This document shows positions 10,345-24,918 of a stretch of 32,000 nt of DNA, piece after piece (the first letter of the stretch is position 1; the number at the start of each line of letters is the position of its first letter). The DNA comes from Nitratidesulfovibrio vulgaris str. Hildenborough (GTDB lineage Bacteria; Desulfobacterota; Desulfovibrionia; Desulfovibrionales; Desulfovibrionaceae): the NCBI RefSeq assembly GCF_000195755.1, contig NC_005863.1:60001-92000 (forward strand). Direction: 5' to 3'. The notes under the pieces are model-generated. The model did no database searches. It worked only from the letters and a program-made list of their open reading frames with translations, and was not told the DNA's origin. Made by a program: the position numbers and the translations under genes.

Positions 10345-10424
10345 CCCGTCGTGTCTCGCCCGGTGCCTCCACGGGGGGCTCCCCCGATGTCTCTCCTGAA
10401 GTCTCCCGCGGCGTCTCCCTTGGC

Positions 10425-12893
10425 ATGGGGCGCCGCCTCTTCTGCGGCATCACCCGTGGCGTTGCCCGATGCCGTCGGGCGGTGCCGGTGTGCGCCGTCT
10501 TCGCCTTCCTTCTTGCGGGCCTTCTGTCCGGCATGGTCGCAGGGCCACTCCCCGGCATGGCGGGCGACGCCCTCGCCGCGGGCACGCAGGGCACTGCGCC
10601 GGGAGGGCCCGCTTCGGGGCAGGGCGCGTCAGGGTCAGGCCGGGGAGACCTCTTCACCCCCCTGGGCCCCGGCGGGGGCGGCGGCATGTACGTGCCCTCC
10701 ATGTCGCCCTACGAACAGGGGCTGGTGTTCGTGGCGACGGACATGGGCGGGGTGTTCCGTTCCGAAGACGACGGCGCGCGCTGGCGTCTCATCCCTTTCG
10801 GCAACGGGCTGCGGTACACGCAGCTTTCGCCGCCCATGGTGCACTTTCCGCGGCATATCGCGTGGGTCACCGAGCGCAGCAGGGTCACCATGAGCCATGA
10901 CCGTGGCGCAAGCTGGACGACGCAGCCCCCCGGCCCGTGGGGGAAGTCGCCGGTGACGCGGCTGGCAGGCATATCCGGCGCTGGAACGGGCGGTGCGACA
11001 GCCTCCCGGCCCTACGGGGCGCCCCCCTCCGGGGCGGACGGCCCCGACGTGCTGTTCGCGGGCACCAAGGATGGCGTGTGGCGCACCACCCTCGTCGGGG
11101 GAAGGCCCGACGGCTGGCAGCGCGTGCTGGACGGCGGCGGCAGCGAAATCGTGTCGCTTGACGGTATGCTGTACACCTTCACGGGCGACGGCACGTTCAT
11201 GACCAGCCGCGACCGTGGGGTGACGTGGGGCGTGACGGCGGCCGCCGCTTCGGTGGGCGGGCGTGTCGCCTCGTTCACAGGGGCCACCGATGGCAGCCGG
11301 ACCGTACTGCTGGCCTCGGTGGAGGGCAGGGGCCTCATCCGTTCGGTGGATGGCGGGCGCGACTGGGCCACGGTGAAGCCCGGTTTCGAGAACGAACGCC
11401 ACCTGACCATGGCCCCCGGACAGACCCGCGTGGCCTACGCCGCCCAGACCGGCGGGGTGGCGCACAAGCAGCTTCTGCGTTCCACGGACGGCGGCGTCAC
11501 GTGGGAGAAGACGTTCCGCATGGCCATGCCGTGGGACAAGGTCACCTTCGGCACCAACGTGGAACGGTCATGGGTGCAGACCAGCCTCGGCTGGGGCTAC
11601 TACCTCACCGCCAACCCGCTGGCGGTGCACCCGACGGGTGACGGCTTCCTGCTGCTGGCGACACAGGGCGACCTCTACGTCAGCCGCGACGGCGGCGACT
11701 CGTGGCGGCAGGCCATGTCTGCCGTGCTTCCGCCCGACACGGGTGCGGGCGGTGCAGGCGCGTCGCCCCGCCTTGCCACCATCGGCCTCGAGGTGACCAG
11801 CGCATGGGGCTACCTGTTCGACCCCCACGACCCGCAGCGCACCTACATCGCCTACACCGACATCGGCTTCGCGCGTTCCTTGGACAGGGGGCGTTCGTGG
11901 CAGTGGTCCGCCAAGGGGTCGCCGTGGACGAACACCTTCTACGACGTGGTGGTCGACCCCGCCGTGCCGGGGCGTCTGTATGCCGCCGCCAGCATGAGGC
12001 ACGACATCCCGCACGGCACGTCGCTTTCGCCCACCAACATGGGCTACGGCGTCCACGCCAAGGGCGGGGTGGTGGTGAGCGACGATCACGGGGCCTCGTG
12101 GCGCGTGCCCTACGACGCCAAGGGCGCACCGGACGCGCTGCCGAGCATGACATGCACCACCATCGCCCTCGACGAGACGTCGCCCGCCGAGGCGCGGGTG
12201 CTCTACGCCGGGTTCTTCGGCGAGCGCGACGATGACAGGGCCGGGGTCTACAGGTCGGAGGACGGCGGCAGGACATGGCGCGACGTGAGCCTCGGCCTCG
12301 GGTCACCGGGCAACCTGCACGTGTACCGCGTGCGCATCCACCCCGTCACCCGCGAACTCTACTGCCTCATCACCGGCATCAGCGGCAAGGGCACCAACTT
12401 CACCGTCCCCGGCGGGCTGTGGAAGTCGGCCGACGGCGGCGCCACATGGCAGGACCTCACGGCGGGCAGCCCGCTGGCGTGGTGGGCCACGAACCTCGCC
12501 TTCGACCCCGCAGACCCGCGCACCATCTACGTCTCCGCAGCCACGGCGCCGGGGCACTGGCTCGAGGGCGGCATCTACAGGACGACCGACGGCGGGCGCG
12601 GCTGGAAGCAGGTGCTCAGCGACAAGGGCATCCAGAAGGCCGTCGGGGGCGACAGCTTCGACCACACCATGGCCGTAGCGGTGCATCCCGACGACCCGAA
12701 GCTGGTCTACGCGGGCACCACGCTGCACGGGCTGCTGTACAGCCGCGACAGGGGCGAAAGCTGGCAGGCGTATGCGGCCTTTCCCTTCGCCGCCGTCACG
12801 GGCGTCACCTTCGACCCCGCCGACCGCACGCGGATGATCGTCACCACCTTCGGCGGGGGCGTCTGGTCCGGCCCCGTGTTGCCGGAGAACTAG
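10425..12893 (+). CDS. BNR/Asp-box repeat beta-propeller protein (sialidase / GH74 / sortilin-like), probably exported
   Basis: Twelve S/T-x-D-x-G-x-x-W Asp-boxes are present (SEDDGARW, SHDRGASW, SRDRGVTW, SVDGGRDW, STDGGVTW, SRDGGDSW, SLDRGRSW, SDDHGASW, SEDGGRTW, SADGGATW, TTDGGRGW, SRDRGESW). The start is uncertain. ATG 10425 places a signal-like segment (RRAVPVCAVFAFLLAGLLSGMVAG) near the N-terminus. The ORF is open from 10158, and 10341 is also possible. Confidence 0.7.
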   Translation: MGRRLFCGITRGVARCRRAVPVCAVFAFLLAGLLSGMVAGPLPGMAGDALAAGTQGTAPGGPASGQGASGSGRGDLFTPLGPGGGGGMYVPSMSPYEQGLVFVATDMGGVFRSEDDGARWRLIPFGNGLRYTQLSPPMVHFPRHIAWVTERSRVTMSHDRGASWTTQPPGPWGKSPVTRLAGISGAGTGGATASRPYGAPPSGADGPDVLFAGTKDGVWRTTLVGGRPDGWQRVLDGGGSEIVSLDGMLYTFTGDGTFMTSRDRGVTWGVTAAAASVGGRVASFTGATDGSRTVLLASVEGRGLIRSVDGGRDWATVKPGFENERHLTMAPGQTRVAYAAQTGGVAHKQLLRSTDGGVTWEKTFRMAMPWDKVTFGTNVERSWVQTSLGWGYYLTANPLAVHPTGDGFLLLATQGDLYVSRDGGDSWRQAMSAVLPPDTGAGGAGASPRLATIGLEVTSAWGYLFDPHDPQRTYIAYTDIGFARSLDRGRSWQWSAKGSPWTNTFYDVVVDPAVPGRLYAAASMRHDIPHGTSLSPTNMGYGVHAKGGVVVSDDHGASWRVPYDAKGAPDALPSMTCTTIALDETSPAEARVLYAGFFGERDDDRAGVYRSEDGGRTWRDVSLGLGSPGNLHVYRVRIHPVTRELYCLITGISGKGTNFTVPGGLWKSADGGATWQDLTAGSPLAWWATNLAFDPADPRTIYVSAATAPGHWLEGGIYRTTDGGRGWKQVLSDKGIQKAVGGDSFDHTMAVAVHPDDPKLVYAGTTLHGLLYSRDRGESWQAYAAFPFAAVTGVTFDPADRTRMIVTTFGGGVWSGPVLPEN

Positions 12894-12937
12894 CATGCAG
12901 CGCACGGACAGCCATACGACACAGCCGCAGGAGGCGC

Positions 12938-14314
12938 ATGATGGGTAGGGCACTCGTCACCTCGGCACGGACGCGCGTCGCCTACAACATCTGCAAGAGT
13001 CTCGCACGGCGCGGGGTGGAGGTGGTGGTGGCCGACGCAAGGCCGCACGCCATGTCGTTCGCATCGCGCCATGCGGCGGGCACGGCGCGCTACACCTCGC
13101 CCTTCGAGGACGAGGCCGCGTTCGTGGACGACCTTCTGCGCATCATCGACCGCGAACGCATCGACGTGCTCGTCCCCGTGCTGGAGGAGACGTACATGGT
13201 GGCCCGCCATCACGCCCGTTTCGCGCCGCATGTGGGGCTGTGCCTCGCGGGGTACCACGACATGGTGCGCCTGCACGACAAGGCGTCGCTGCGCGGGCTG
13301 GCGGCGGACTGCGGTGTGCCCATGCCGCAGACGGTGTCCCTTGCTGCGCTGCTGGCCTCACCCGGCATCGCAGACGGCCTCGCCTACCCGCAGCTGGTCA
13401 AACCCCGGCAGGGCGGGGGCGGATGGGCCGTGGAAGAGGCCGCCACGCCCGCACGGCTGCTCGACATCGCGCGGCAGCGCGGTGCGGACGGCGGGCTGGC
13501 ACAGCAGAAGCTTGCGGGCCACATGGTGTGCGTGGCCATGCTCTACGACGCGGGGCGGCTGGTGGCCAGCGACACCTACCGCGTGCTCGAGACCTACCCG
13601 CACCCCTACGGGCAGGGGACGTTGCGCGACTCGGTGGCGTGCCCCGGGGCCGAGGCTGGCTTGCGTGCGCTGCTTGACGCCCTGCACTGGACGGGGGTGT
13701 GCGAGGCCGACTTCATCGTCGTGCCCGACGGTACAGGCGGGGCCGAGGGCGGGGCGCACGGAGAGGACGGGCGCGGGAAGGATGCGGGACGCGGGCTGGC
13801 AGACCATGTGGCGCAGCCGGGACACTCTGCACGGGCCGACCAGACCGTCGAGGGAGGGCAGGCGAGGCAGGAGGCCCAGACTGGACAGTCGTCCGGAGCG
13901 TCGGCGCACCTCCCCCGGCTGGACGGCGCGGCCTACCTCATCGACGTGAACCCGCGCTTCTGGGGGTCGCTGGCGCACAGCGTGGCGCGGGGGGTGGACT
14001 TTCCGCACTACTATTACCGCCTTGCCATGGGCGAGCGCGATGTGGCGGTGCCGCAGGCCCCCCCCGGCGTGGTCACCCGCTGGCTCGGTGGCGACATCAT
14101 GCGCGTGGGGGCGCAGTTCATCGCCGCACGCGACAGGCTTGGCTACATCTCCGGGGCGTTGAGGCAGCGCAGGCGCGTGGCGGCCTACGACGACTTCGAC
14201 CTCGCCGACCCGCTGCCCATGCTGGCATGGAGCGCGGGGCAGGCGGTGCGCGCCGTCCGCAAGGCCTTTGGCATGACGACCACCAGCGAGGCGCTTTCCG
14301 GCGTCTGGGAATGA
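12938..14314 (+). CDS. ATP-grasp family ligase, paralog 1 (carries a low-complexity insertion)
   Basis: ATG 12938 follows GCAGGAGG. The sequence is MMGRALVTSARTRVAYNICKSLARRGVEVVV..., then HDKASLRGLAADCGVPMP, QLVKPRQGGGG, CEADFIV...YLIDVNPRFWGS. It is clearly similar to the gene at 17184-18479. Confidence 0.8.
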   Translation: MMGRALVTSARTRVAYNICKSLARRGVEVVVADARPHAMSFASRHAAGTARYTSPFEDEAAFVDDLLRIIDRERIDVLVPVLEETYMVARHHARFAPHVGLCLAGYHDMVRLHDKASLRGLAADCGVPMPQTVSLAALLASPGIADGLAYPQLVKPRQGGGGWAVEEAATPARLLDIARQRGADGGLAQQKLAGHMVCVAMLYDAGRLVASDTYRVLETYPHPYGQGTLRDSVACPGAEAGLRALLDALHWTGVCEADFIVVPDGTGGAEGGAHGEDGRGKDAGRGLADHVAQPGHSARADQTVEGGQARQEAQTGQSSGASAHLPRLDGAAYLIDVNPRFWGSLAHSVARGVDFPHYYYRLAMGERDVAVPQAPPGVVTRWLGGDIMRVGAQFIAARDRLGYISGALRQRRRVAAYDDFDLADPLPMLAWSAGQAVRAVRKAFGMTTTSEALSGVWE

Positions 14315-14331
14315 CGGGCGGTGTACGGGGC

Positions 14332-14367
14332 GGACTGCGAGACGGGCTGCGAGACGGGCTGCGGGGC
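14332..14367. repeat. 12-nt tandem repeat x3 (GGRCTGCGRGRC) in the ATP-grasp 1 / AT3 intergenic region
   Basis: The units are GGACTGCGAGAC, GGGCTGCGAGAC and GGGCTGCGGGGC. They begin 18 nt after the ATP-grasp 1 stop codon. Confidence 0.85.
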
Positions 14368-14452
14368 ATGACCGGCCCCCGGACGGACGGGCGAGGTCAC
14401 GGCGACGATGCGGAACGGATGACGACAACGGAATGAACCGCAGGAGAAGGCC

Positions 14453-15838
14453 ATGACGGACGCGACACGACGCGGAACGCGCAACGACACGGTGCAGGCG
14501 TTGAAGCTGCTGTTCCTGCTGGTCATCTGCTACGGGCACCTCTTCGCCGAAGGCCCGGCTGCGACCCTGCCGGGTTCGACGCTGATGGATGGCCTGCCCA
14601 TGCGCCTGTGGTGGGTTCCCGGCGATGTGGGGCTGTTCTTCTTCACTGCAACGTCGGGGTACTTCACCGCGCTGCGCTACCCCGGTGCGGCGATGATGCA
14701 GGGCTACTGGCGGCGCAAGGTCTCGCGCCTGTGCGGGCTTTTCCTGTTCCTCAACGCGGTGCTGGGCTGCGTGTTCCTCGCCACCGGGCGCGAGGGCGTC
14801 TTCACGTGGGATGCGCTGGTGAACCTGCTTGGCCTCAACGGTTTTCTCAACTGGTTCCATCTCGGCAACGACAGCCCCTTCGGGGCGGGGCAGTGGTTCT
14901 TCACCCTGCTGTTGCTGTTCTACCTCGTCTATCCGGTGATGAACCGTGCGGTGACCACCCCGGCGCGCGGGCGGTTGCTGCTGTGGGGTTGCGTGGCGCT
15001 GGCGGCGGTCATGCAGGTGCGTCTTCCCTACGGGCATTCGCTGTGGTCGACATCGGTGGGCTTCGTGGCGGGCTTCTGGCTGGCGCGCTTCGGCGGTTCG
15101 CACCCCGCACGCAGCGGATGGTTCGCCCTGTGCGCCTGCCTCGCAGGGGCGGTGGCGTACCGCTTCATCGGGCATCTGCCCGTGCTGGCGTACTCCGTCA
15201 TCGGCCTTGCCGGGTACGTCTGTACCGTGCTTGCGCTGACGGTGCGTCTTCCCCTGCTGCCAGCGAGGGTCCTCGATGCGGTGGGCGACCTGATGCTGCC
15301 CCTCTACATCATCCACACCTACTTCAGGCTGCCGCTGGCGCAGGACCCGTACCTCGACGCCTTGCTGGTGCTGACCATGAACGCGGGCATCGCGTGGGTG
15401 CTGCTGAAGGCGTACGCCCTGCTTGCGGGACGGCGTCGGCATGCGGGGCCGCCCACCGTCGCCCCGAGGGGGGCTGGCATGGCGGGTTCCGGTGTGCCCG
15501 GTCCCGGTACGGGCGGCAGGGCGAAACCCGTGGCCAGCCCCGCACTGGCGGCGAAAGCGCACCATGCGGCGAACGCCGAGACACCGTCCCCGCAGGCACT
15601 AGCCACCCATGAGCCTGCCGTGCAGGCGGCTTCGGGGCTTACCCCGGCTGGCCAGACAGCATCAGGCCAGACAGCATCAGGCCAGACACCATCTGGGCAG
15701 ACACCATCAGGCCAGACGCTTTCTGCTCAGGCGCTTTCCGGCCAGACGTATTCCGGCCAGACGCATTCCGGCCGGTCGTCTCCGGGGCGGCAGTCGTCGC
15801 CCCTGCCCGCTCGCACCAAGGGGGAGGGCACACCATGA
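14453..15838 (+). CDS. Acyltransferase-3 family integral membrane protein with a repeat tail
   Basis: ATG 14453 follows AGGAGAAGG. The N-terminal VQALKLLFLLVICYGH and GLFFFTATSGYF motifs plus about 10 TM helices fit the AT3 family. The C-terminal roughly 110 aa are low complexity. Confidence 0.65.
   Translation: MTDATRRGTRNDTVQALKLLFLLVICYGHLFAEGPAATLPGSTLMDGLPMRLWWVPGDVGLFFFTATSGYFTALRYPGAAMMQGYWRRKVSRLCGLFLFLNAVLGCVFLATGREGVFTWDALVNLLGLNGFLNWFHLGNDSPFGAGQWFFTLLLLFYLVYPVMNRAVTTPARGRLLLWGCVALAAVMQVRLPYGHSLWSTSVGFVAGFWLARFGGSHPARSGWFALCACLAGAVAYRFIGHLPVLAYSVIGLAGYVCTVLALTVRLPLLPARVLDAVGDLMLPLYIIHTYFRLPLAQDPYLDALLVLTMNAGIAWVLLKAYALLAGRRRHAGPPTVAPRGAGMAGSGVPGPGTGGRAKPVASPALAAKAHHAANAETPSPQALATHEPAVQAASGLTPAGQTASGQTASGQTPSGQTPSGQTLSAQALSGQTYSGQTHSGRSSPGRQSSPLPARTKGEGTP
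15650..15769. repeat. 15-nt tandem repeat x8 (GGCCAGACAGCATCA and variants), encodes (GQTxS)n in the AT3 tail
   Basis: The units are indexed every 15 nt from 15650. The first two are identical and later ones diverge progressively. Confidence 0.95.
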
Positions 15839-17187
15839 CGCGTCCCCCTACACCCACTCCGGCACCCACTCCGGCACCCGCGACCGCCCCCCCGCGCGAG
15901 GCCCGCCCTCCCGGTCAGGTCAGTCCTCCCGGTCAGGCGAACCCTCCCGGTCAGGCTAACCCGGCCCCCCCTGCGGACGGGCGGCTGCGTGCCATCGACG
16001 CCATGCGCGGCCTCGTGATGCTGCTCATGACCCTCGACCATGTGCGCGGGCACTTCACCTACGCGGCGTATGCCCTGTGGCATGACGCCTCGCCGTTGCC
16101 GACAGACCCGCTCAATCTGGACGTCACCACGCCGCTGTTCTTCACGATGCGCTGGGTGACGCACCTGTGCGCGCCCTCGTTCATCCTGCTTGCGGGCGTC
16201 TCCGTCCATCTCTGGCAGCAACGTCATGGCACGGGACGCCCCGTGTCGGCGCGCCTCGTCACGCGAGGCCTGATGCTGGCGGGCCTCAACATGGCACTGG
16301 GGCTGCACGCCCCCCTGTCGCCCGACAGGGTGCTCATCCTCGACGTGCTGTGGCCCATCGGCGTCTCCATGGTGTTGCTGGCGGTCGCCGTGCATCTGCC
16401 GCGTGGTGTCGCGTGGGTGATGGCGTTGCTGCTGGTCGCGGGGCACGACGCCCTGCGGGGCTTCATGCCCGACGGGGAGACGGCGTCGTTCCTGTGGCGG
16501 CTGGCGTTCGTGAAGTCGTATCTCGATGTCCCCGATGTGGGGGGGCTGCACATCATCTACCCGGTGCTGCCGTGGTTCGGGGTCATGTGGCTTGGCTACC
16601 TGTGCGGCGGGCTTGCCGACCTCGACATCGGGAGGCGTGTACGGGTGCTGCCGCGCCTCGGGCTTGGGCTTCTTGCCGCGTCCGTGCTGCTGCGTCTTGC
16701 CGGGGGCTACGGCGACCCCTCGACCTTCGCCGTGCAGGACACGGCGTGGCGCACTGCCGCCGCGTTCTTCAATGTGGCGAAGTACCCGCCTTCATTGCAG
16801 TTCCTTCTTGTCACGCTGGGCGTCATGTGGCTGCTGCTGGCGTGGTTCGACAGCCGCTGCCATCTCCCGCACGCCACGCCCCGGGGCTGCCCCGGCTGGC
16901 TTGTGCTGTCCGGCAGTGCGCCCCTGTTCTACTATGTGGCGCATCTGGTCGTCCTTCGCGGGCTTACGCCCGTGCTGGGCCGCCTGCCCTCGCCCGTGCC
17001 GGAGGCCGCCTTCAGCGCCGGGGGCATCGCCGTCTTCACGGTCGCCGTCTTCGCGGGACTGCTGCCCGCGTGCGCGTGGGTCGTGCACCGTCGCCGGAAG
17101 ACCCGTGCGCGACGGGTGACAGGGGTGGCGCATGGGCCGCAGGCGGCGCATGGGGGACATGGAACCCGTCAGGGGGGTGGGGCATGA
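15835..17187 (+). CDS. DUF1624 / heparan-alpha-glucosaminide N-acetyltransferase-like membrane protein
   Basis: ATG 15835 overlaps the upstream stop (ATGA). After a Pro-rich repeat N-terminus come RLRAIDAMRGLVMLLMTLDHVRGHF and THLCAPSFILLAGVS, which are typical of DUF1624. The protein is polytopic. Confidence 0.7.
   Translation: MTRPPTPTPAPTPAPATAPPREARPPGQVSPPGQANPPGQANPAPPADGRLRAIDAMRGLVMLLMTLDHVRGHFTYAAYALWHDASPLPTDPLNLDVTTPLFFTMRWVTHLCAPSFILLAGVSVHLWQQRHGTGRPVSARLVTRGLMLAGLNMALGLHAPLSPDRVLILDVLWPIGVSMVLLAVAVHLPRGVAWVMALLLVAGHDALRGFMPDGETASFLWRLAFVKSYLDVPDVGGLHIIYPVLPWFGVMWLGYLCGGLADLDIGRRVRVLPRLGLGLLAASVLLRLAGGYGDPSTFAVQDTAWRTAAAFFNVAKYPPSLQFLLVTLGVMWLLLAWFDSRCHLPHATPRGCPGWLVLSGSAPLFYYVAHLVVLRGLTPVLGRLPSPVPEAAFSAGGIAVFTVAVFAGLLPACAWVVHRRRKTRARRVTGVAHGPQAAHGGHGTRQGGGA
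15851..15960. repeat. 12-nt repeat x2 (CACCCACTCCGG, 15851-15874) and 18-nt repeat x3 (CCTCCCGGTCAGGNNNNN, 15907-15960) at the DUF1624 N-terminus
   Basis: They encode TPTPAPTPAP and (PPGQxx)3, in frame with ATG 15835. Confidence 0.9.
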
Positions 17188-18479
17188 GCGTCGTCCTCGT
17201 CCTCGGTGCCGAGACCATGCTGGCGCGCGTGGTCAGCCGCAGCCTGCATCGCGCGGGTTTCACCGTGCTGGCGGCCTCCTCCACGCCGTGGCCCATCTGC
17301 GCCTATTCGCGCTATGTGCGGCGCACCTTCACCCACGCCGACCCGAAGCACGACGAGTCGCGGTTCATCGACGACATCCGCCGCATCTGCGAGACGCAGG
17401 GCGTGGACGTGCTGTTGCCCATCCTGCGCGAGTGCGCCGTCATCGCACGACATCGTCACCTCTTCGGCCCCGGCGTGCGGATGCTACTTGGCGACGCCGC
17501 GACGCTGGCCGACTTCGGCGACAAGTACCGTACCTACGAGGTGGCGCGCGACGCGGGGCTTGCCGTGCCCGAGTACCGCAGGGCTGCCGACCTCGCTGCC
17601 GACCCGGCGGCCCTTGCGGCCTTTCCGTGCCCGTGCCTCGCCAAGCCCGTGTGGGGGTGGGGCGGCTACGGGATGCACGAATGCGCCAGCCCGCAGGAGG
17701 TCGCCGCCCGCATCACGGCCATGACCGACCGACAACGCGAAGACTACTTCATGCAACAGCGGATGCCGGGTGACGTGGTGTGCGTGGCCATGCTGTGCGA
17801 GGCGGGGCAGATGCACGCGTGCGACACCTTCCGCATCGTGTCCTCGTACCCGAGGCGGCACGGGCAGTCGACACTGCGCGAGTCGGTGCGGGCCGACGCC
17901 GCCGTGGACGCGCTGCGGACGCTGCTTGCCCATGTGGGCTGGACGGGCCCGTGTCAGGCCGACTTCATCATCGACCCGGTCACGGGCACGCCGTACCTCA
18001 TCGACATCAACGCCCGGTACTGGAATTCGCTGATTCAGAGCACCGCCCGCGGGGTGGACTTTCCCGTCATGCACTGCCGGATGGCGCTGGGCATGGGTGA
18101 TGCGGGCGGCGCAGGCGGCGCGGGAGATGTTCCGGGCACCGGCGCGGCTGGCGTGTCGCCGGGTGTGTCGCCGGGCGTGCCGCGGGGTGTGCCGGACATG
18201 AGTGCGGGCATGTGCGCGGACATGGACACGGGGGTGAGCACGGCATGGTTCAGTCGCGCCCTGCGCGGCGACCCGGCCCTGCTGCTGCGGCGTCTCTTCT
18301 CGCGCCCGCAGGGTCAGGCCGCACGGGGCATCGCCGCCTTCGACGACTGGGACGTCCGCGACCCGCTGCCCTTCTTCGCATGGCCCTTGCGGCATCTGCT
18401 TGGGCGCATCGCCTCGCGGGTGGCCCCGCATCACTACGCAACCGATGGAACAGGACGAGGTGAAGCATGTCGCTCATGA
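17184..18479 (+). CDS. ATP-grasp family ligase, paralog 2
   Basis: ATG 17184 overlaps the upstream stop (ATGA). It shares blocks with paralog 1: VCVAML, GQ[GS]TLR[DE]SV, W[T]G[VP]C[EQ]ADFI, YLID[VI]N[PA]R[FY]W[GN]S and ARGVDFP. Confidence 0.8.
   Translation: MSVVLVLGAETMLARVVSRSLHRAGFTVLAASSTPWPICAYSRYVRRTFTHADPKHDESRFIDDIRRICETQGVDVLLPILRECAVIARHRHLFGPGVRMLLGDAATLADFGDKYRTYEVARDAGLAVPEYRRAADLAADPAALAAFPCPCLAKPVWGWGGYGMHECASPQEVAARITAMTDRQREDYFMQQRMPGDVVCVAMLCEAGQMHACDTFRIVSSYPRRHGQSTLRESVRADAAVDALRTLLAHVGWTGPCQADFIIDPVTGTPYLIDINARYWNSLIQSTARGVDFPVMHCRMALGMGDAGGAGGAGDVPGTGAAGVSPGVSPGVPRGVPDMSAGMCADMDTGVSTAWFSRALRGDPALLLRRLFSRPQGQAARGIAAFDDWDVRDPLPFFAWPLRHLLGRIASRVAPHHYATDGTGRGEACRS
18150..18197. 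repeat. 12-nt tandem repeat x4 (GGYGTGYCGCCG-like), encodes GVSPGVSPGVPRGVPD in ATP-grasp 2
   Basis: I indexed the units at 18150, 18162, 18174 and 18186. Confidence 0.9.
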
Positions 18480-20092
18480 GCCACATGATGCAACTGACGG
18501 GCAGCCTGCTGCGACGCGCTTCGTACAGACGGCAGATGCGGCAGGGCAGGCCGCCCCTCTCGCTGTGGGGCCTCGCCGACGAGGACGGCGTTCTCACCGT
18601 GGGCGGGGCCTCCGCCGTGGCGCTGGCAGCCGCGTATGGCACGCCGCTTCTGGTGGTGGACGAGAAGGCCCTGCGGGCCAAGGTGGCAGAGGTGCGGGCG
18701 GTGCTCGACGACGAGTTGCCCGGTGCCCGGCTGACCTATTCGTACAAGACCAACTGCATCCCCGGCATCCTGCGCGTGCTGCACGACGCGGGCGTGGGGG
18801 CCGAGGCCATCTCGGCCTATGAGTACTGGCTGGCACAGAGCCTTGGCGTACCGGGCGAACAGCTCATCTACAACGGTGTGGACAAGTCGCCCGAGAGCCT
18901 CGCAATGGCGGTGGCGCACGGCGCGCTCATCAACATCGACAACCGCGACGAGGTGGACGCGGTGCTGGCGACGGCCCGCGCACAGGGGCGGGTGGCCCGC
19001 ATCGGCCTGCGGCTTGGGCTCAACCGCAGCGCGCAATTCGGTCTCGACCCCGACAGCGCGGAAGGTGACGGCGACATCGCCCATGTCGTGGCCCGCTGCA
19101 AGGCCCACCCGGAGCACGCCTCGCTGGAGGCGCTGCACTTCAACGTCACCAGCAACGCACGGCACAGCGGCTACCATGTGCGCTGCCTCGCCCTCGCCCT
19201 CGACGTGATGCGCACCCTCGCCCGCGTCCACGGGGTGCACATACGGCTTCTCGACGTGGGCGGCGGCTTCGGCGTGCAGACCAGCAAGAACATGTCCGGC
19301 GTGGAATACGGCCTGTACCGACTGTTCGGGGTGGCACCGGGCGGGGCGTGGCTCGACCCGTTCCAGGACTTCCGCCTCTACATCCGCGACATGGCTGCGC
19401 TGCTGACCTCGTACTGCCGCGACAATGCCCTGCCGCAGCCCGTGGTCTGCCTCGAACCGGGCAGGCTGCTCACCAGCGGGGCCGAACTGCTGCTGACCCG
19501 CGTGAAGGCCGTCAAGGAACGGCCCGGGGCGGAACCCTTCGCCATCACCGACGGGGGGCGTCTCTCGCAGGCCTACCCCTGCGACTTCGAATGGCACGAG
19601 GCCTTTCTCGCCAACGACCTGCGCAGGCCGCTTGCACGCGCCTACACGGTGACGGGCAGGGTCTGCACGCGTTCCGACTGGCTGTACCGGGGCAAGGTCA
19701 TGCCTGAACTCGCTTCCGGTGACATCCTCGCCGTGCTGGACGCCGGGGCCTATTTCTCGTCGTACGCCATGAACTTCGCCTTCCCGCGTGCCGCCGTGGT
19801 GGGCGTGGAGGACGGGCGGGCGCGTGTGATGCGCCACCGCGAGACCTTCCGCCACCTGACGGCCATGGATGAGGTGCAACTGGTCGATGTGAAGCTGGAC
19901 GGAGTGGCACTGGACGACGAGGCGTCGGCAGGGGCAGGGCCCCACGAGACGGGATGCGTCGGGATGTCCGGGGCTCTTGGGGCATCCGGGGCCGGGGGGC
20001 TGCCGGGTATGCCCGCCGCACCGTCACCGGGCACGCCGTCATCCCCGCCGAGAGCGCATGGCACGACGGGCACGCGAGGGGGCGGCGCATGA
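18467..20092 (+). CDS. PLP-dependent decarboxylase, Orn/DAP/Arg decarboxylase fold (exosortase-system-associated type)
   Basis: ATG 18467 lies 6 nt after GAGG and overlaps the upstream gene by 13 nt. The sequence reads GTPLLVVDEKALRAKV...LTYSYKTNCIPGILRVLHDAGVGAEAISAYEY...LIYNGVDKS, then HFNVTS...LDVGGGFG, then GRVCTRSDWL...GDILAVLDAGAY. It has a low-complexity C-terminal extension. Confidence 0.85.
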   Translation: MSLMSHMMQLTGSLLRRASYRRQMRQGRPPLSLWGLADEDGVLTVGGASAVALAAAYGTPLLVVDEKALRAKVAEVRAVLDDELPGARLTYSYKTNCIPGILRVLHDAGVGAEAISAYEYWLAQSLGVPGEQLIYNGVDKSPESLAMAVAHGALINIDNRDEVDAVLATARAQGRVARIGLRLGLNRSAQFGLDPDSAEGDGDIAHVVARCKAHPEHASLEALHFNVTSNARHSGYHVRCLALALDVMRTLARVHGVHIRLLDVGGGFGVQTSKNMSGVEYGLYRLFGVAPGGAWLDPFQDFRLYIRDMAALLTSYCRDNALPQPVVCLEPGRLLTSGAELLLTRVKAVKERPGAEPFAITDGGRLSQAYPCDFEWHEAFLANDLRRPLARAYTVTGRVCTRSDWLYRGKVMPELASGDILAVLDAGAYFSSYAMNFAFPRAAVVGVEDGRARVMRHRETFRHLTAMDEVQLVDVKLDGVALDDEASAGAGPHETGCVGMSGALGASGAGGLPGMPAAPSPGTPSSPPRAHGTTGTRGGGA

Positions 20093-21096
20093 CAGGTCAC
20101 GCCCTGCATATCGCCCCCTGCGGGCCGTCACGCCACGCCGAGTGGGATGCCTTCGTCGAGGCGCATCCCGCCCGCCCGCTGTTCCATTCACGGCGGTGGC
20201 TGTCGTTGCTCGCCCGCCATCAGGGCGTGCGTCTCGACCTCCATTGCATCGAGGCGCAAGGCCGCGTGGTGGGGCTGCTGCCCATGTTCAGCCGGGGCTA
20301 CGGCGTCATCCGGGTGCATTCGTCGCCCTATGTGGTGACGGATACGCCCTACCTCGGCCCGCTGGTGGACGACGACGTGTCGCCTCATGCCCTGTGGGCC
20401 GCGCTTCTCGACCATGCGCGGCACAGCGGCATGGACTTCGTGCGCCTGTTCACCCGTGTGGGTATGGCGTGCCCCCCCGTGGACGGCACGCCCGCCGGGG
20501 TGCAGCGCAAGACCACGCATGTGCTCGACCTCACGCCGGGGGAGGAGGCCCTCTGGAACGGTCTGGAGGGGCGCTGCCGCACGGCGGTGCGCAAGGCCGC
20601 CAAGGAGGGCGTGACCGTGGAACCCATGGCGGACGATGCCGCCCTCGAACGGTTCGTGGACATGCTCGAAGGCGTCTACGCCCGACAGGGGCTGACCTCG
20701 CCCAACCCCCGCGCCTTCTACCGCGACGTGTGGCGCACCTTCGGCGGGCGCGAGGTCGTGGGGCTGACGGCGCGGCACGAGGGACGCGACATCGCCTCGG
20801 CGCTCTTCGTCATGGACGCGCGCGACGCCTACTACATCAGCGGTGCCTCGGCGGGCGACTGCGGGCGGTTGTCGCCCAACAACATCCTGCAATGGGAGGC
20901 CATACGCCTCGCCCTCGCGCGGGGGGTGGTCAGGTACGACTTCGTGGGGTCCGACATCCCGCGCATCGCACGTTTCAAGGCGAGTTTCGGCGGGCAGCTG
21001 CATGAATACTGGTGCGTCGAGTGCGCGCCATCCCGCGTGGCGCGCTTCATGCGCGCTGCCTACCCGTGGCTCAAACGGCGACTGGGCAGGGTGTGA
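20089..21096 (+). CDS. FemAB-like (GNAT-fold) protein, PEP-CTERM-system-associated type
   Basis: ATG 20089 overlaps the upstream stop (ATGA). The motifs are WDAFVEAHPARPLFHSRRWLSLL, GLLPMF, GRCRTAVRKAAKEGVTVE, and YDFVGSDIPRIARFKASFGGQL at the C-terminus. Confidence 0.8.
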   Translation: MTGHALHIAPCGPSRHAEWDAFVEAHPARPLFHSRRWLSLLARHQGVRLDLHCIEAQGRVVGLLPMFSRGYGVIRVHSSPYVVTDTPYLGPLVDDDVSPHALWAALLDHARHSGMDFVRLFTRVGMACPPVDGTPAGVQRKTTHVLDLTPGEEALWNGLEGRCRTAVRKAAKEGVTVEPMADDAALERFVDMLEGVYARQGLTSPNPRAFYRDVWRTFGGREVVGLTARHEGRDIASALFVMDARDAYYISGASAGDCGRLSPNNILQWEAIRLALARGVVRYDFVGSDIPRIARFKASFGGQLHEYWCVECAPSRVARFMRAAYPWLKRRLGRV

Positions 21097-21163
21097 TGAC
21101 GGCACGGCACGACGCAGAGAGACCCCGGCACCAGCGCCGGGGAAGGGAAACGGAGGCGGCAGC

Positions 21164-22885
21164 ATGATAGGATATGCGCGCATGATGTTGCACAGGCTGA
21201 GCAACAGCGCGTGCCATGCGAGGATGCGCGAGCATCTCGCACTGGAACGGCTGCCGCACGACGAGTTGCGGCAGAGGCAGTTCTGGGTCGCGGTCACGCT
21301 GCTCAAGCACGCCTACGAGACGGTGCCCCATTACCGTGCGCTCATGGACGGGGCGGGGCTGCATCCCGACGCGGTACGCAGCTTCGCGGACTTCGCGGCG
21401 CTGCCCGTGCTGCGCCGGTGGCCCGCCGGGGCACCTGCGCCCGACCTCGTGTCCAAGGCCCTGCCCCGCAAGGCGCTGGCGGCGCTGCAAGGGCAGTCTG
21501 CCGAGAACGGGGGCTGCCTGCCCGCGCCCATCCTGCGCGACCGCGCCGCCCGCGACGAGACGCAGGCCAACTGGCTGCTGTGCCTCACCTTCGCGGGATG
21601 GACACAGGCGGACATGGTGGTGCGGCTGTATGCCGCGTCGGGCGACGAGTCGGGCGACCTGCTGCACCCCGGCGTGCGCGAATGGCTGGCGGGGACCCTC
21701 GCCGTGGACGGCTGCACCTACGCACCGGACGCCGTGGCGCAGTGGGTGAAGGCCATCCGCCGTTGCGGCAGGGCCTATGTGCTGGGCAATGCTCGCGTCA
21801 TGGCGGACATGGCGGACTTCATGCGCGAGGGCGGCATCCGGCTTGGCAACGTGCGCGGGGCCGTGGTGTCGGGCGGCAGGGGCGACCACCACCCGTATGC
21901 GAACGGCCTTCCGGATGCTGGCGGCCTGCATATCGGGGTGCCCGGCCAGACCGACCAGACCGGCCAGACCGGCCAGACCGGCCACGCCGTGCACACGGGG
22001 CCTGCCGACGGTGACGGGACGGGGCGGCAGCGCATCGCCGAGGCCTTCGGCTGCCCGGTGTTCGACCTGTACGGCTGCGCCGAGGTGCCCTGCATCGCCA
22101 TGCAATGCGGCGCGGGCAACCTGCACCTGCTGACGCACTCGGCCCATGTGGCGTTCGAACCCGATGCCGCGTGCGGCCCGCCACGCCTCATCGTCACCGA
22201 CCTCAACAACAGGGCCATGCCCGTGCTGCGCTTCGACACCGGCGACCACGGCGTGCCCGTGGACGGCCCGTGCCCCTGCGGGCGCGGTTTCCCGCTGATG
22301 CGGCGCGTGCCCGCCACCGGGACGTGGTTTCAGACGGTGGAAGGGCGGTTCATCCCCGGCGACGCGTTCGCCCGTGGTCTTGCCGCCCGTCTGGACGCAC
22401 TTCTGGCACTCGTCCCCGGCGAGAGTGCTGCCGGAGGGCACCCCGACGGGGGTGCGGCGCGGCACGGCGACGGTGATGGAGAGGGCGGAGGCAACGGAAG
22501 CGATAACCGTGGCACCGGGCATCATGCGGGACATGACACCGCGCATGGCGGCAGCCATCAGATGGGGCCTCACATGGGGCGTGGCGACAGCCGGCACCCC
22601 GCGCACAGGGGCGGGCGTGGCGCATACCGCGCATGGCCCGCCTTCAGGCAGGTGGTCCCCGGCGTCGTCCACGTCGTCCTTCCGGCGGAGTGCGCCATGG
22701 GTGCGACCCCCTTCGGGGCCCTCGTGCGTGACACCGTGCGCGAGGTCGTGCGCGACGCCGCGCAAGGGGCCGGGGCCGCAGACGCCTCGGCGCTGGCGAC
22801 CCTGACGTTCGTGCAGGCGACGACTCCAGCGGGGCGCGACGCTTCGCACGGGGGCGGACCGCCGCAAGGAGGGCACAGGCCATGA
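21164..22885 (+). CDS. Phenylacetate-CoA ligase (PaaK/CapK)-like adenylate-forming enzyme with two insertions
   Basis: ATG 21164 follows CGGAGGCGG. The sequence LERLPHDELRQRQFWVAVTLLKHAYETVPHYRALMDGAGLHPDAVRSFADFAALPVLRR matches the PaaK-family N-terminus. FDLYGCAEVPCIAMQC...HLL appears later. Confidence 0.75.
   Translation: MIGYARMMLHRLSNSACHARMREHLALERLPHDELRQRQFWVAVTLLKHAYETVPHYRALMDGAGLHPDAVRSFADFAALPVLRRWPAGAPAPDLVSKALPRKALAALQGQSAENGGCLPAPILRDRAARDETQANWLLCLTFAGWTQADMVVRLYAASGDESGDLLHPGVREWLAGTLAVDGCTYAPDAVAQWVKAIRRCGRAYVLGNARVMADMADFMREGGIRLGNVRGAVVSGGRGDHHPYANGLPDAGGLHIGVPGQTDQTGQTGQTGHAVHTGPADGDGTGRQRIAEAFGCPVFDLYGCAEVPCIAMQCGAGNLHLLTHSAHVAFEPDAACGPPRLIVTDLNNRAMPVLRFDTGDHGVPVDGPCPCGRGFPLMRRVPATGTWFQTVEGRFIPGDAFARGLAARLDALLALVPGESAAGGHPDGGAARHGDGDGEGGGNGSDNRGTGHHAGHDTAHGGSHQMGPHMGRGDSRHPAHRGGRGAYRAWPAFRQVVPGVVHVVLPAECAMGATPFGALVRDTVREVVRDAAQGAGAADASALATLTFVQATTPAGRDASHGGGPPQGGHRP
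21947..21982. repeat. 9-nt tandem repeat x4 (CAGACCGRC), encodes QTD(QTG)3 in the PaaK-like gene
   Basis: I indexed the units at 21947, 21956, 21965 and 21974. Confidence 0.95.
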
Positions 22886-24918
22886 CCATCGTCCTCGCGT
22901 GTCTCGTGGTGGTGCTGACGGTGGCGGGCACGGCCCGCGCCCTGCACGAGTCGGGGCGGGCGGCTGCGCCGCGCGTGGTGGCCCCGGTGCTCACGGCCGT
23001 TCTCGTGGTGGCCGAGACCTATCTCGCCGTGGCCACCGAGGTCGCGCCGTGGACGTTGCAGGCGACGCTCATCCTTCAGGCGCTGCTGGCCCCGGCGTGG
23101 GCCACGTTCGCCCTGTGCTACGGGCGCGAGTGCTCATGGCGCACGCTGCCGCGCAGCGGCAGGCTGCTGCTGGCCCTGTCGCTGTCGCCCGTGCTCATGG
23201 CGGCCGTGCTGCCACCCGATCAGTTGTTCTATCTTGCCGACTTCACGGCCGAACGAGTCTTCTACCTCGAACCGCGCGCCTTCTTCCTCTACCTGCAACT
23301 GCTGCTGTGCCTGCTGCTGTCGGCGGGCAACCTCGAGACCACGCTCCGCAACAGCCGCCACAGCCAGCGCTGGCGCATCAAGCTGGCCCTCGTCGGCATG
23401 GGGGCGGTGCTCGCGGCGCTCTGCCTGCAATACGGGCAGGGGCTGGTCATCCGCACCCTCGACCTCGGCTATGTGGGGCTGCGCAACGGGGCCGTGGCGC
23501 TTGGCTTCGCGCTGTTCCTCTTCGCCGAGACGCGCCGTGGCAGCGACAAGGTGCACATCGCGCGGCGTCTGGCCTTCCGGTCCGTGGTCGCCATCATCGC
23601 GGGCGGGTACCTGCTTGGACTCGGCGTGCTGCGCGAGGGCGTGCGTCTGGCGGGGCCTGATTTCGAACGGCACTTCGCGCTGGCCATCGTCTTCGCCGTC
23701 GTCCTCGCGGGGTTGATCATCCTGCTGTCGGACCACCTGCGCAGGCGGTTCAGCATCTGGATGCACCGCACCTTCTACAACGAGAAGTACGACTACCGCA
23801 CACAGTGGATCAACTTCACCGACATGCTCTCCCATGCCCGCAACACCCGCGACTTCGTGGACGTGATGCTGGTGGGCCTGTGCGATGCCTTCGGCTTCGT
23901 GGGGGCTGCCTTCGTGCCCGCCGACTTCGAACACCCCGGACAGGCCCGCGACGCCGTGGTCTACGAGATGGAACCGCTGCCGCCCACGCTGCCCGCCACG
24001 GCCTTCGGCGGACTGCTGGTCTACGAGGGTGGCCCGTGCACGCTGGACACGGTGGCGGGGCTCTTGAGCGAAGACGCGCTCGAAGCCCTGCAAGACGCCG
24101 GGGTGGGCCTCGTGCTGCCGGTGCGCACCGTGGAGGGCTGCGAGGGGGTGGTGCTACTGGCACGGCCCATCGACACCCGCGAGGAGCACGACCTTGAGGA
24201 CTTCGAACTCCTCGAGGCCATGGGACGCCAGATAGCCCTGTGCGTGCGCAGCTTCCGCCTTGGCGACGAACTGGCGGTGGCGCGCGAGATGGAGGCGCTG
24301 GGCCGCTTCGCCGCGCTGGTGATGCACGACCTCAAGAATCAGGTCTACGCGCTCTCGCTGCTGGTGGACAACGCGCGGCTGTACATCGCCGAACCCGAGT
24401 TCCAGCGCGACCTTGTGGAGACGCTCACCAACAGCGTCAGCAACATGCGCAACCTCATCTCGCAACTGACGCGCCTGCCGGGGCGCGAGAACCTGCATCT
24501 CGCCCCTGTCGACCTCATGGAACTGGCACGCGAGGCGTGCGCCAGCCTGCCGGGGGCGGACATCCGCTTCGAGGGCGCGGGGGTGCGGGCCGCGGTCGAT
24601 GCGGAGCAGGTGTCGAAGGTGCTCGTGAACCTGTGCCTCAACGCCATCGAGGCCGACCCCGCGGGGCCGGTGGTGGTGCGGGTGGGTGTGAACGGCGGCC
24701 CGCTCATCAAGGTCGAGGACTCGGCGGGCGGCATCGACCCCGCCCTGTTGCGCGACGGACTGTTCAAGCCCTTCAGATCGACCAAGAAGCGCGGCATGGG
24801 CATCGGCCTGTACCATTGCCGCAAGATCGTCGAGGCGCACGGTGGCACCATCGGCGTGGAGTCGCAGCCCGGACGCGGCAGCACCTTCACCGTGCAGTTC
24901 GCCCGGAGGGAGGGCTGA
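22882..24918 (+). CDS. prsK: PEP-CTERM-system histidine kinase (PrsK type): polytopic sensor, GAF, HisKA and HATPase domains
   Basis: ATG 22882 overlaps the upstream stop (ATGA) and is preceded by GGAGGG. It has about 8 N-terminal TM helices, a GAF-like middle region, the H-box FAALVMHDLKNQV, the N-box LVNLCLNAIEA, G1 VEDSAGGID and G2 GMGIGLYHCRKIVEAHGG. Confidence 0.85.
   Translation: MTIVLACLVVVLTVAGTARALHESGRAAAPRVVAPVLTAVLVVAETYLAVATEVAPWTLQATLILQALLAPAWATFALCYGRECSWRTLPRSGRLLLALSLSPVLMAAVLPPDQLFYLADFTAERVFYLEPRAFFLYLQLLLCLLLSAGNLETTLRNSRHSQRWRIKLALVGMGAVLAALCLQYGQGLVIRTLDLGYVGLRNGAVALGFALFLFAETRRGSDKVHIARRLAFRSVVAIIAGGYLLGLGVLREGVRLAGPDFERHFALAIVFAVVLAGLIILLSDHLRRRFSIWMHRTFYNEKYDYRTQWINFTDMLSHARNTRDFVDVMLVGLCDAFGFVGAAFVPADFEHPGQARDAVVYEMEPLPPTLPATAFGGLLVYEGGPCTLDTVAGLLSEDALEALQDAGVGLVLPVRTVEGCEGVVLLARPIDTREEHDLEDFELLEAMGRQIALCVRSFRLGDELAVAREMEALGRFAALVMHDLKNQVYALSLLVDNARLYIAEPEFQRDLVETLTNSVSNMRNLISQLTRLPGRENLHLAPVDLMELAREACASLPGADIRFEGAGVRAAVDAEQVSKVLVNLCLNAIEADPAGPVVVRVGVNGGPLIKVEDSAGGIDPALLRDGLFKPFRSTKKRGMGIGLYHCRKIVEAHGGTIGVESQPGRGSTFTVQFARREG

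Follow-up and report, generated by a model that had tools for sequence, protein, structure and literature searches.

A stretch of 32,000 nt from plasmid pDV1 of Nitratidesulfovibrio vulgaris Hildenborough (NC_005863.1, forward-strand positions 60,001 to 92,000; hereafter the window, numbered from its first letter, with the species called D. vulgaris below) holds seven consecutive same-direction genes within a polysaccharide locus of the exosortase/PEP-CTERM kind. These genes, here named A to G and collectively the cassette, encode two ATP-grasp ligases, two membrane acyltransferases, a pyridoxal 5'-phosphate (PLP) decarboxylase, a FemAB-type transferase, and a CapK/PaaK-fold protein (Table 1). 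The question addressed is what they may build and, specifically, what the decarboxylase (E) may do together with the ATP-grasp ligase next to it.

Gene content and coupling of the cassette

All seven reading frames are open, and their third-position guanine-plus-cytosine (GC) content, for those scored whole, is 0.82–0.87 in a genome of ~70% GC, well above that of second positions, as in true coding frames. The coordinates of A–G and of PrsK coincide exactly with RefSeq coding sequences. The cassette is 100% identical to positions 67495–77442 of the N. vulgaris RCH1 plasmid pDEVAL01 (NC_017311.1, where the window spans record positions 54558–86557) and 98.3% identical to its counterpart in strain DP4; protein D, for example, is found on pDEVAL01 and in many sequencing-run assemblies. 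Start and stop codons overlap as ATGA at 15835, 17184, 20089, and 22882, D and E overlap by 13 nt (18467–18479), and the only gaps within the cassette are those between A and B (138 nt) and between F and G (67 nt), neither of which has space for a carrier-protein gene. Hydrophobic segments mark B and C as polytopic membrane proteins, and A, D, E, F, and G have none. Between RCH1 and DP4, the ratio of non-synonymous to synonymous polymorphism (pN/pS) is 0.26 over the cassette. A–G are real, coupled, and conserved genes, in agreement with the gene content and overlaps given in a preliminary description of this DNA, and our Pfam and NCBIfam assignments return the same superfamilies that it named.

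In-frame tandem repeats with units of 9–18 nt are present in B (15650–15773, the pentapeptide repeats of its C-terminal tail), C (15851–15962), D (18153–18224), and G (21942–21984), and another lies in the A/B spacer (14331–14363). Those within genes encode low-complexity linkers, e.g. "SGQTx" pentapeptides and "GQT" triplets, and low-complexity insertions or tails occur in every cassette protein but F. Relative to RCH1, the DP4 genes differ in length by −45 nt (B), −30 nt (C), +24 nt (D), and +18 nt (E), and the spacer by −12 nt, while A, F, and G are the same; E differs although no comparable repeat is listed for it, and G has a repeat but an unchanged length. The differences in B, C, D, and the spacer point to repeat copy-number polymorphism, the indel positions themselves being unmapped.

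Table 1. Genes of the cassette and flanking features of the locus, with positions in the window.
Feature	Position	Strand	Evidence
A, ATP-grasp carboxylate-amine ligase	12938..14314	+	PRK06849 73 bits; alignment of orthologues
B, AT3-family integral membrane acyltransferase	14453..15838	+	PF01757 Acyl_transf_3 41.3 bits (cutoff 31)
C, HGSNAT_cat/DUF1624 integral membrane acetyltransferase-like protein	15835..17187	+	PF07786 53.5 bits (cutoff 22)
D, second ATP-grasp ligase	17184..18479	+	PF02655 ATP-grasp_3 34.6 bits (cutoff 23.2)
E, fold-type III PLP decarboxylase, LysA-like clade	18467..20092	+	Orn_Arg_deC_N and Orn_DAP_Arg_deC domains
F, FemAB/Acetyltransf_6-type transferase	20089..21096	+	PF13480 75.1 bits (cutoff 22); PF02388 63.7 bits (cutoff 24)
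G, CapK/PaaK-fold protein	21164..22885	+	Sub-threshold PaaK-family NCBIfam matches; predicted fold
Exosortase DVUA0055	6969..7922	+	TIGR02602 305 bits (cutoff 105.6); Pfam Exosortase_EpsH 248 bits; defines the locus
EpsI DVUA0056, exosortase partner	7912..8532	+	TIGR02914 154.7 bits; DUF3485 165 bits
PrsR DVUA0057, sigma-54 PEP-CTERM-box response regulator	8687..10117	+	TIGR02915 585 bits (cutoff 502.6); RefSeq start
BNR/sortilin-Vps10 repeat protein	10293..12893	+	Sortilin-Vps10 101 bits; F510_1955-like 144 bits (cutoff 175)
PrsK DVUA0065, XrtA/PEP-CTERM histidine kinase	22882..24918	+	TIGR02916 407 bits (cutoff 300); ATGA overlap with G
Patatin-like phospholipase DVUA0066	25372..26784	+	Patatin 99.5 bits

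A LysA-like decarboxylase paired with an ATP-grasp ligase

E is a member of the fold-type III PLP superfamily (PF02784, 73.9 bits; PF00278, 40.3 bits). It had been placed in the exosortase-associated family TIGR03099, and we reject that assignment, as E scores 107.6 bits against a cutoff of 478.45, i.e. lower than on the lysA model. LysA itself (TIGR01048) is rejected as well, with 186 bits against a cutoff of 297.9 and with the residues specific for diaminopimelate (DAP) replaced. Specifically, alignment with the LysA structures 2p3e and 1twi indicates that the PLP lysine (YSYKTN), GGGFG, and EPGR are kept, while "RPxxY" has become "YPCDF", "CE(S/T)GD" has become "CTRSD", and "HIGS" has become "NVTS". 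We take it that in LysA the Arg and Tyr of the first motif and the Glu of the second contact the distal carboxylate and amine of DAP. These replacements, together with an insert, SKNMSGxEYGLYR, are conserved in 18 family members (41–75% identity), so E would represent a distinct clade of ~470 residues, across which K94, G265–G269, and E330–R333 are invariant. The RefSeq name "diaminopimelate decarboxylase" is, on these residues, probably wrong as to substrate. Against the structures of BtrK and FslC, E scores 68–79 bits.

Scanning metagenomes with an E-family profile gives 80 loci, whose ORFs (open reading frames) were scored with hidden Markov models (HMMs) of three families; relatives with at least 600 bits to the E-family HMM are considered close, and those below 600 bits distant. 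Of the informative non-redundant loci of close relatives, 17 of 20 have an ATP-grasp ligase of the A/D family as immediate neighbour on the same strand (35 of 43 when short contigs are counted). The decarboxylase precedes the ligase in 28 cases and follows it in 4, and a family 4 glycosyltransferase (GT4) is located directly downstream of the pair in 8 of 16.

The pair keeps consistent company. Among 126 neighbour proteins from 11 long loci, the Pfam census counts 23 GT4, 14 family 2 glycosyltransferases (GT2), 8 Asn_synthase, 6 Wzy_C, 4 flippase, and 3 FemAB/Acetyltransf_6 proteins. All three of the latter exceed the TIGR03019 cutoff (285, 379, and 302 bits), and the AsnB-like neighbours best match TIGR03108, below its cutoff. 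Exosortases are not among the top 25 families of this census, nor were any detected near the pair in metagenome loci outside Nitratidesulfovibrio. In Desulfatitalea alkaliphila, an ATGA-coupled pair of E-like decarboxylase and ATP-grasp ligase is followed by a GT4, a PEP-CTERM protein, and an asparagine synthase. The neighbour census and the TIGR03019 FemAB proteins therefore place the pair in Wzx/Wzy heteropolysaccharide loci, some of them of XrtA type. Our literature searches returned nothing specific on decarboxylase/ATP-grasp pairs in exopolysaccharide clusters, and the most useful new point of this analysis is the pair as a widespread, mis-annotated module, probably for polysaccharide decoration.

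More distant LysA-like decarboxylases (~420–600 bits) often adjoin CapK/PaaK-like rather than ATP-grasp ligases, an arrangement recorded at 11 loci. This suggests two interchangeable ligase partners for decarboxylases of this type.

The remaining ligases and transferases

A has a weak ATP-grasp match (PRK06849) and is under Pfam cutoffs, and its orthologue alignment retains K155, D258, D336, and N338 without exception, i.e. the ATP-grasp lysine and the DxN metal ligands; an insertion of ~65 low-complexity residues is confined to D. vulgaris. We find 59 homologues of A, with orthologues located beside exosortases across Desulfovibrionales and in Geotalea, and the top match of the A-family profile among PDB sequences is the uncharacterised 2pn1. 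D, directly upstream of E, is a divergent paralogue of A (36% identity) that keeps the motifs KP, ADF, and DINAR. Its AlphaFold model (predicted local distance difference test, pLDDT, 85) is closest in Foldseek to biotin carboxylases, the L-amino-acid ligase 3vot, and PylC 4ffl (E ~1e-17), which are generic ATP-grasp neighbours and do not discriminate a substrate. Judged by these alignments, A and D are ATP-grasp superfamily members with their catalytic residues kept, and D is predicted to have the canonical fold.

B and C both exceed their Pfam cutoffs and have the expected polytopic topology, B with six hydrophobic segments and a K18-X10-H29 motif, and C with about 7–9 segments.

F belongs to the FemAB/Acetyltransf_6 superfamily, in an uncurated subfamily distinct from TIGR03019, the family to which it had been assigned: F scores 76.7 bits there against a cutoff of 260.35, and we discard the assignment. 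The subfamily comprises 97 cluster representatives at E ≤ 1e-30. The ten top-ranked relatives of F (33–69% identity) are likewise below the TIGR03019 cutoff, those with 38–45% identity scoring 48–90 bits, and some relatives are fused to a GT4, a Wzx-like flippase, or methyltransferases. The genuine TIGR03019 protein of pDV1 (466 bits) is encoded elsewhere, ~20 kb upstream of the cassette and outside the window, and is 29% identical to F over its full length.

At 46522–48412 of NC_017311.1, that TIGR03019 FemAB protein lies side by side with an XrtA polysaccharide deacetylase, followed by a DegT aminotransferase, an arrangement that mirrors VimE/VimA/WbpE of the type IX linking-sugar pathway. 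By this analogy, the deacetylase/TIGR03019 pair would be a better candidate than the cassette for the unit that builds the exosortase acceptor.

G had been described as a PaaK-like adenylating enzyme, and the fold part of that description stands: the predicted structure (moderate pLDDT of 69) has the two-domain arrangement of the PaaK type, with BT_0428, PaaK1/2, AjiA1, and NatL2 as Foldseek matches (E 1e-16 to 1e-12), although the local Pfam copy gives no match for G. The catalytic part fares worse. A search of 5.8 billion (5.8e9) proteins yields 29 homologues, of which the more distant, intact ones carry PF27533 CapK_C, a C-terminal GK motif (GGKHR or SGKRS), and a P-loop SGGTTGEP that aligns with SSGTTGKP of PaaK and agrees with the expected S(S/G)GTTGxP. 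In G and its Nitratidesulfovibrio clade, this P-loop is replaced by GQSAENGGCLPAP or similar, and no A10 catalytic lysine aligns in the C-terminal region of G or of these relatives (for G, from about column 500 of the G-family alignment onward). With its P-loop degenerate and the A10 lysine missing, G is probably not an active adenylating enzyme. G carries low-complexity insertions and differs between RCH1 and DP4 at 9 synonymous versus 4 non-synonymous sites (dN/dS, as pN/pS, 0.15), so we regard it as conserved with adenylation probably lost. The superfamilies behind the four bond-forming chemistries once ascribed to the cassette are thus all present, while adenylation by G is doubtful. Literature searches gave nothing specific on CapK function and no characterisation of a biochemical role for these families, as had been stated at the outset.

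Conservation in other genomes

The D. vulgaris gene order is exosortase-EpsI-PrsR-BNR-A-B-C-D-E-F-G-PrsK-patatin. N. liaohensis has the whole of it (59–80% identity), and one metagenome contig, available from the BNR gene onward, has BNR through patatin in the same order (60–93% identity); outside D. vulgaris strains, this order is seen in these two. Another Nitratidesulfovibrio has G upstream of the exosortase, then EpsI-PrsK-PrsR-BNR-A-B-C-D-E-F. Because prsK and prsR are adjacent in this related species, with the cassette after them, the layout between prsR and prsK is a local rearrangement, and we reject that position as functionally meaningful. All seven families occur together in one locus only in Nitratidesulfovibrio.

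Beyond the genus, single families recur. Desulfomicrobium baculatum has a CapK-like gene, deacetylase, BNR, AsnB-like gene, unknown gene, and A-type ATP-grasp ligase, then exosortase, EpsI, an unassigned gene of 699 codons, PrsK, and PrsR, with B–F absent from the locus. In a Desulfovibrionaceae metagenome-assembled genome (MAG), the order is CapK-like, deacetylase, exosortase, EpsI, PrsK, PrsR, BNR, unknown gene, ATP-grasp, and E-like decarboxylase (57%), with a PEP-CTERM protein near the decarboxylase. A genome scan with the A-family profile gives 22 loci, four with an exosortase within 10 kb; five further Desulfovibrionaceae loci have the gene order that precedes the exosortase (one on a contig where the exosortase follows), and in Geotalea toluenoxydans EpsI and exosortase are directly upstream of the A-type ligase. 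Remote A-family matches (at most 30% identity; Bacteroidota, Chloroflexota, and others) show no exosortase in their loci. Co-occurrence of cassette families with exosortase-system genes is thus seen beyond this genome, as the preliminary description required. Across Desulfovibrionales, the A and G families (with BNR) are the only cassette families that recur beside exosortases, and the B–F block looks, from these gene orders, like a Nitratidesulfovibrio-specific elaboration, i.e. a lineage-specific add-on.

The BNR protein, which has a single N-terminal hydrophobic segment, is found alongside an A-type ATP-grasp ligase in most Desulfovibrionales exosortase loci examined (the window and eight other loci). 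It is immediately upstream of the ligase in Nitratidesulfovibrio and 1–2 genes off in Desulfomicrobium and some MAGs.

The surrounding locus and its regulation

The cassette is embedded in an exosortase/PEP-CTERM locus, as first described, with exosortase, EpsI, and PrsR upstream and PrsK immediately downstream. On the XrtA-specific model, the exosortase scores 200.7 bits, marginally under the cutoff of 208, and RefSeq labels it plainly "exosortase", with many neighbouring genes bearing XrtA-system names. The PrsK and PrsR equivalogs, the exosortase, and EpsI are all present, and the cassette occupies the interval from prsR to prsK in a PEP-CTERM polysaccharide locus of XrtA type. In the published table of the Hildenborough plasmid, DVU_A0055 is the EpsH exosortase, A0056 EpsI, A0057 PrsR, and A0065 PrsK (Haft et al. 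2006, PMC1569441). The numbering of flanking genes there and in PMC6170446 makes the cassette approximately DVUA0059–0064.

Within the window, the genes upstream of the cassette include, besides those in Table 1, a Wzx-like flippase, three glycosyltransferases (GT4s among them), and two hexapeptide acetyltransferases. Upstream of the window, RefSeq annotates a TIGR03013 priming glycosyltransferase, an export protein, a chain-length determinant, a tyrosine autokinase, an ATPase, an outer-membrane protein, the XrtA polysaccharide deacetylase, the FemAB family XrtA/PEP-CTERM protein, the DegT aminotransferase, a GT2, a "sugar-transfer associated ATP-grasp" protein (ATPgrasp_ST), a Wzy-like protein, and three PEP-CTERM proteins. 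With the genes inside the window, these make up a complete polysaccharide locus of XrtA type. The window itself has no PEP-CTERM-tailed ORF and no Rfam RNA family.

The gene prsR is the first of a published "ten-gene operon" (Rajeev 2011), and the DVUA0057 regulon includes other pDV1 operons, PEP-CTERM genes among them (Kazakov 2015, PMC4641369). A scan for sigma-54 promoters (TGGCAC-N5-TTGCW, at most 2 mismatches) gives 13 matches versus 18 expected. The cassette appears to be co-transcribed with the prsR...prsK regulatory genes.

Downstream of PrsK, the patatin gene is syntenic in the Nitratidesulfovibrio loci with D. vulgaris-type order, and over-expression of DVUA0066 is reported to reduce D. 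vulgaris biofilm 5.6-fold (PMC6170446). At 27000–32000, GC content falls from ~70% to 51–59% and genes turn to the minus strand, including an AT3 acyltransferase (27157–28281), a DUF3488 protein (28333–30315), a methyltransferase, and a glycosyltransferase; past the window, the run goes on with asnB, genes for a sulfotransferase and a radical SAM/SPASM protein, and more glycosyltransferase and methyltransferase genes. This region appears to be a second glycan locus, with a composition that suggests another origin. Outside the window, a protein of ~980 residues annotated as "ThiF family adenylyltransferase" adjoins PEP-CTERM genes (NC_017311.1, 31811–34780). Its 972-residue equivalent in a related MAG (locus L034, 11891–14809), also by a PEP-CTERM gene, combines a FeeM (N-acyl amino acid synthase) domain with nitroreductase and ThiF domains. 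A connection of such synthases with exosortase systems has been published, and the present arrangement is reminiscent of it.

Proposed function and its alternatives

We favour, at a little better than even odds (roughly 55%), the reading that the cassette is an accessory module for tailoring the repeat unit of the Wzx/Wzy-type exopolysaccharide that the XrtA/PEP-CTERM locus around it on pDV1 produces. The core of this module is the widespread pair of E and an ATP-grasp ligase, which we infer to attach a decarboxylated amino acid to a repeat-unit sugar through an amide bond. In the cytoplasm, D would join a carboxylate and an amine via an acyl-phosphate, one partner being an amino acid and the other a sugar in the repeat unit, itself bound to a nucleotide or lipid, that offers either the carboxyl of a uronic acid or a free amine. 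E would take off the free alpha-carboxyl of the amino acid, before or more likely after ligation, leaving an amide-linked, amine-bearing side group. The order "ligate, then decarboxylate" seems the more likely by analogy, because E lacks the binders of the distal end of DAP and because BtrK and FslC, which are LysA-like decarboxylases, act on tethered amino acids. A and F may add further amino-acid units to free amines, and characterised relatives of F are aminoacyl-tRNA dependent. After flipping of the unit, B (AT3) and C (HGSNAT-like) could O- or N-acylate the glycan from cytoplasmic acyl-CoA, and G, its adenylation probably lost, may be a non-catalytic or substrate-binding partner.

Several observations weigh against this reading. 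No product, substrate, or phenotype is on record for any of the seven genes in the literature searched, and the main text of a randomly barcoded transposon sequencing paper on D. vulgaris names no phenotype for them. The ligase partner of E is inferred from adjacency, and A/D-type ligases also occur without the decarboxylase (Geotalea, Desulfomicrobium). In one Desulfovibrionaceae MAG (locus L014, 9935–18596), an E-like protein (59% identity) is convergent with an A-like ATP-grasp ligase in a non-polysaccharide context; the neighbours are an HpcH aldolase, a TctABC tricarboxylate transporter, and a galactarate/altronate dehydratase, i.e. a sugar-acid context. With the motifs of G lost, one of the proposed chemistries may be absent. 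Finally, the cassette genes are not among the listed sigma-54 targets of DVUA0057 (PMC4641369), and scans of 8000–27500 for sigma-70 promoters and terminators are at or below shuffle expectation. As no promoter or terminator signal rises above chance, the case for co-transcription is made by gene spacing and the published operon prediction.

The target could also be a different one. FemAB proteins, D-aspartate-ligase-like ATP-grasp enzymes, and LysA-like proteins are classic peptidoglycan-side-chain families, AT3 enzymes commonly acylate lipopolysaccharide (LPS) or peptidoglycan, and the putative second glycan locus of differing GC content is directly downstream, so that the module might decorate another envelope polymer or lipid (LPS O-antigen, peptidoglycan, or an aminolipid) and not the XrtA-linked exopolysaccharide. 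We consider this rather unlikely, since at other loci the E/ligase pair keeps company with GT4, GT2, Wzy, Wzx, and AsnB proteins of heteropolysaccharide loci and not with mur, lpx, or lipid genes, GT4 and Wzx-type proteins occur as fusion partners in relatives of F, and the cassette stays inside the exosortase locus in the Nitratidesulfovibrio species examined.

A bolder proposal, advanced in the preliminary description, is that the cassette builds an amine-bearing acceptor, i.e. the nucleophile to which the exosortase transfers cleaved PEP-CTERM proteins. There is a parallel in FemXAB, which builds the pentaglycine bridge used by sortase A, and the cassette does combine a FemAB-type transferase with enzymes able to leave a free amine, immediately beside exosortase and EpsI and inside the prsR–prsK unit, with genes of the A and G families recurring beside exosortases. 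Moreover, in type IX secretion an amide bond holds the cargo to a 2-N-seryl or 2-N-glycyl sugar, and VimA, which determines the amino acid on that sugar, matches TIGR03019 (PMC7468200). A universal acceptor-builder should track the exosortase, yet the B–F block is found only in Nitratidesulfovibrio: C, D, and F are missing from the exosortase loci of D. baculatum and other Desulfovibrionaceae, and no exosortase was detected near the E/ATP-grasp pair in the metagenome loci outside the genus. The plasmid, furthermore, already has the canonical XrtA deacetylase and the TIGR03019 FemAB protein (466 bits, against 77 for F), and it is for such TIGR03019/VimA-like proteins in exosortase loci, D. vulgaris included, that the making of an amino-acid-modified sugar acceptor has been put forward as a speculation (Veith et al. 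2020, PMC7468200). Given the canonical pair upstream, a B–F block limited to one genus, and an E/ligase pair that is common where no exosortase was detected nearby, we judge the proposal unlikely. The same holds for an extended version, in which the Nitratidesulfovibrio cassette, on top of the canonical deacetylase/FemAB pair, would build an amine-terminated side chain as exosortase nucleophile, and the decarboxylase/ATP-grasp pair would be a common route in environmental bacteria to protein-attachment handles on polysaccharides. In sum, the preliminary description identified the genes correctly and claimed too much in its family assignments, and its boldest idea had already been published for another gene and is unlikely for the cassette.

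It is still more improbable that the product of the soluble enzymes is a small compound that diffuses freely, for instance a modified amine or a short peptide, and serves as a signal sensed by PrsK or resembles a siderophore. The location between prsR and prsK would suit a signal, but prsK and prsR adjoin each other ahead of the cassette in other Nitratidesulfovibrio. A ligase with a LysA-like decarboxylase follows the logic of siderophore pathways independent of non-ribosomal peptide synthetases and of butirosin side-chain synthesis (FslC, BtrK), and some ligases of the PaaK kind (AjiA1, NatL2, and ClxA) form the amides of natural products; the cassette, however, has no transporter, carrier protein, or other natural-product gene, and its metagenome context is overwhelmingly one of glycosyltransferases.

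It is very improbable that the cassette is in decay and has mostly lost its function, as a relic on a megaplasmid that the cell can do without. The core catalytic motifs of G are lost, low-complexity insertions or tails in all proteins but F include repeats whose copy number seems to vary by strain, and laboratory cultures can lose the plasmid (PMC1569441, PMC6170446). Against this, each of the seven ORFs is uninterrupted in RCH1 and DP4 as well as in many metagenome assemblies, pN/pS amounts to 0.26 for the cassette as a whole and to 0.15 for G, orthologues 59–87% identical keep order and length in other species, and A, D, and E retain their catalytic residues.

Significance and comparison with known systems

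Exosortases still lack a known acceptor substrate, and no chemistry has been demonstrated for the accessory enzymes that PEP-CTERM loci encode. The cassette offers a compact target, i.e. a LysA-like and evidently non-DAP decarboxylase tightly paired with an ATP-grasp ligase across many uncultured lineages, and it is found in the genetically tractable D. vulgaris Hildenborough on a plasmid known to promote biofilm. Knowing which reaction the pair catalyses would define a new decoration of polysaccharides, set right the "diaminopimelate decarboxylase" label that is in wide use, and provide a direct test of whether such decorations serve protein anchoring. Even an ordinary amide decoration would bear on the charge and adhesion of sulfate-reducer biofilms in corrosion.

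Among known systems, LysA shares with E the fold, the PLP lysine, the GGGFG phosphate loop, and EPGR, and differs in the score (186 vs 298 bits), the three changed motifs, and the E-specific insert SKNMSGxEYGLYR. BtrJ/BtrK (butirosin) and FslA/FslC (rhizoferrin) likewise combine a carboxylate-amine ligase with a LysA-like PLP decarboxylase that acts on a tethered amino acid. Unlike the cassette, which has no carrier protein and lies among glycosyltransferases, they yield small molecules via a carrier protein or citrate. The XrtA accessory set (TIGR03099, TIGR03019), whose roles are undemonstrated, has the same superfamilies in the same kind of locus and also includes the AMP-forming ligase TIGR03098; by contrast, E and F are far below its cutoffs, E scores better on lysA, and G is a degenerate PaaK/CapK-type protein.

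In the Campylobacter jejuni HS:2 capsule pathway, the PLP enzymes supply ethanolamine phosphate or serinol phosphate and belong to families other than that of the fold-type III, LysA-like E. The likeness to the cassette is that an ATP-grasp ligase and a PLP enzyme in a polysaccharide locus give an amide-linked, amino-acid-derived amine on a uronic acid (PMC11800379). Specifically, the amidoligase Cj1438C acts on capsular glucuronate ahead of the next glycosyltransferase step (PMC11800379), a coupling comparable with the decarboxylase-ATP-grasp-GT4 order in 8 of 16 loci. Cj1438C is described as a TupA-like ATP-grasp protein fused to a GT2 (PMC11800379), which we liken as a functional analogue by description only, whereas A and D are free-standing and have biotin carboxylase, amino-acid ligase, and PylC types as their nearest solved relatives.

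The type IX Wbp/Vim linking-sugar pathway also resembles the proposed chemistry, in that VimE deacetylation is followed by VimA (TIGR03019-like), which sets the amino acid, i.e. a FemAB/GNAT-type enzyme puts an amino acid on a sugar amine that becomes the attachment point of sorted proteins (PMC7468200). The equivalent on pDV1 is the upstream XrtA deacetylase with the true TIGR03019 protein rather than F, and the ATP-grasp, decarboxylase, and membrane acyltransferase families of the cassette are not named among the Wbp/Vim enzymes (PMC7468200). Amide-type decoration of polysaccharides is thus already known as a kind, and what is new here is the pairing of E-family decarboxylases with ATP-grasp ligases as a module, together with the degenerate G.

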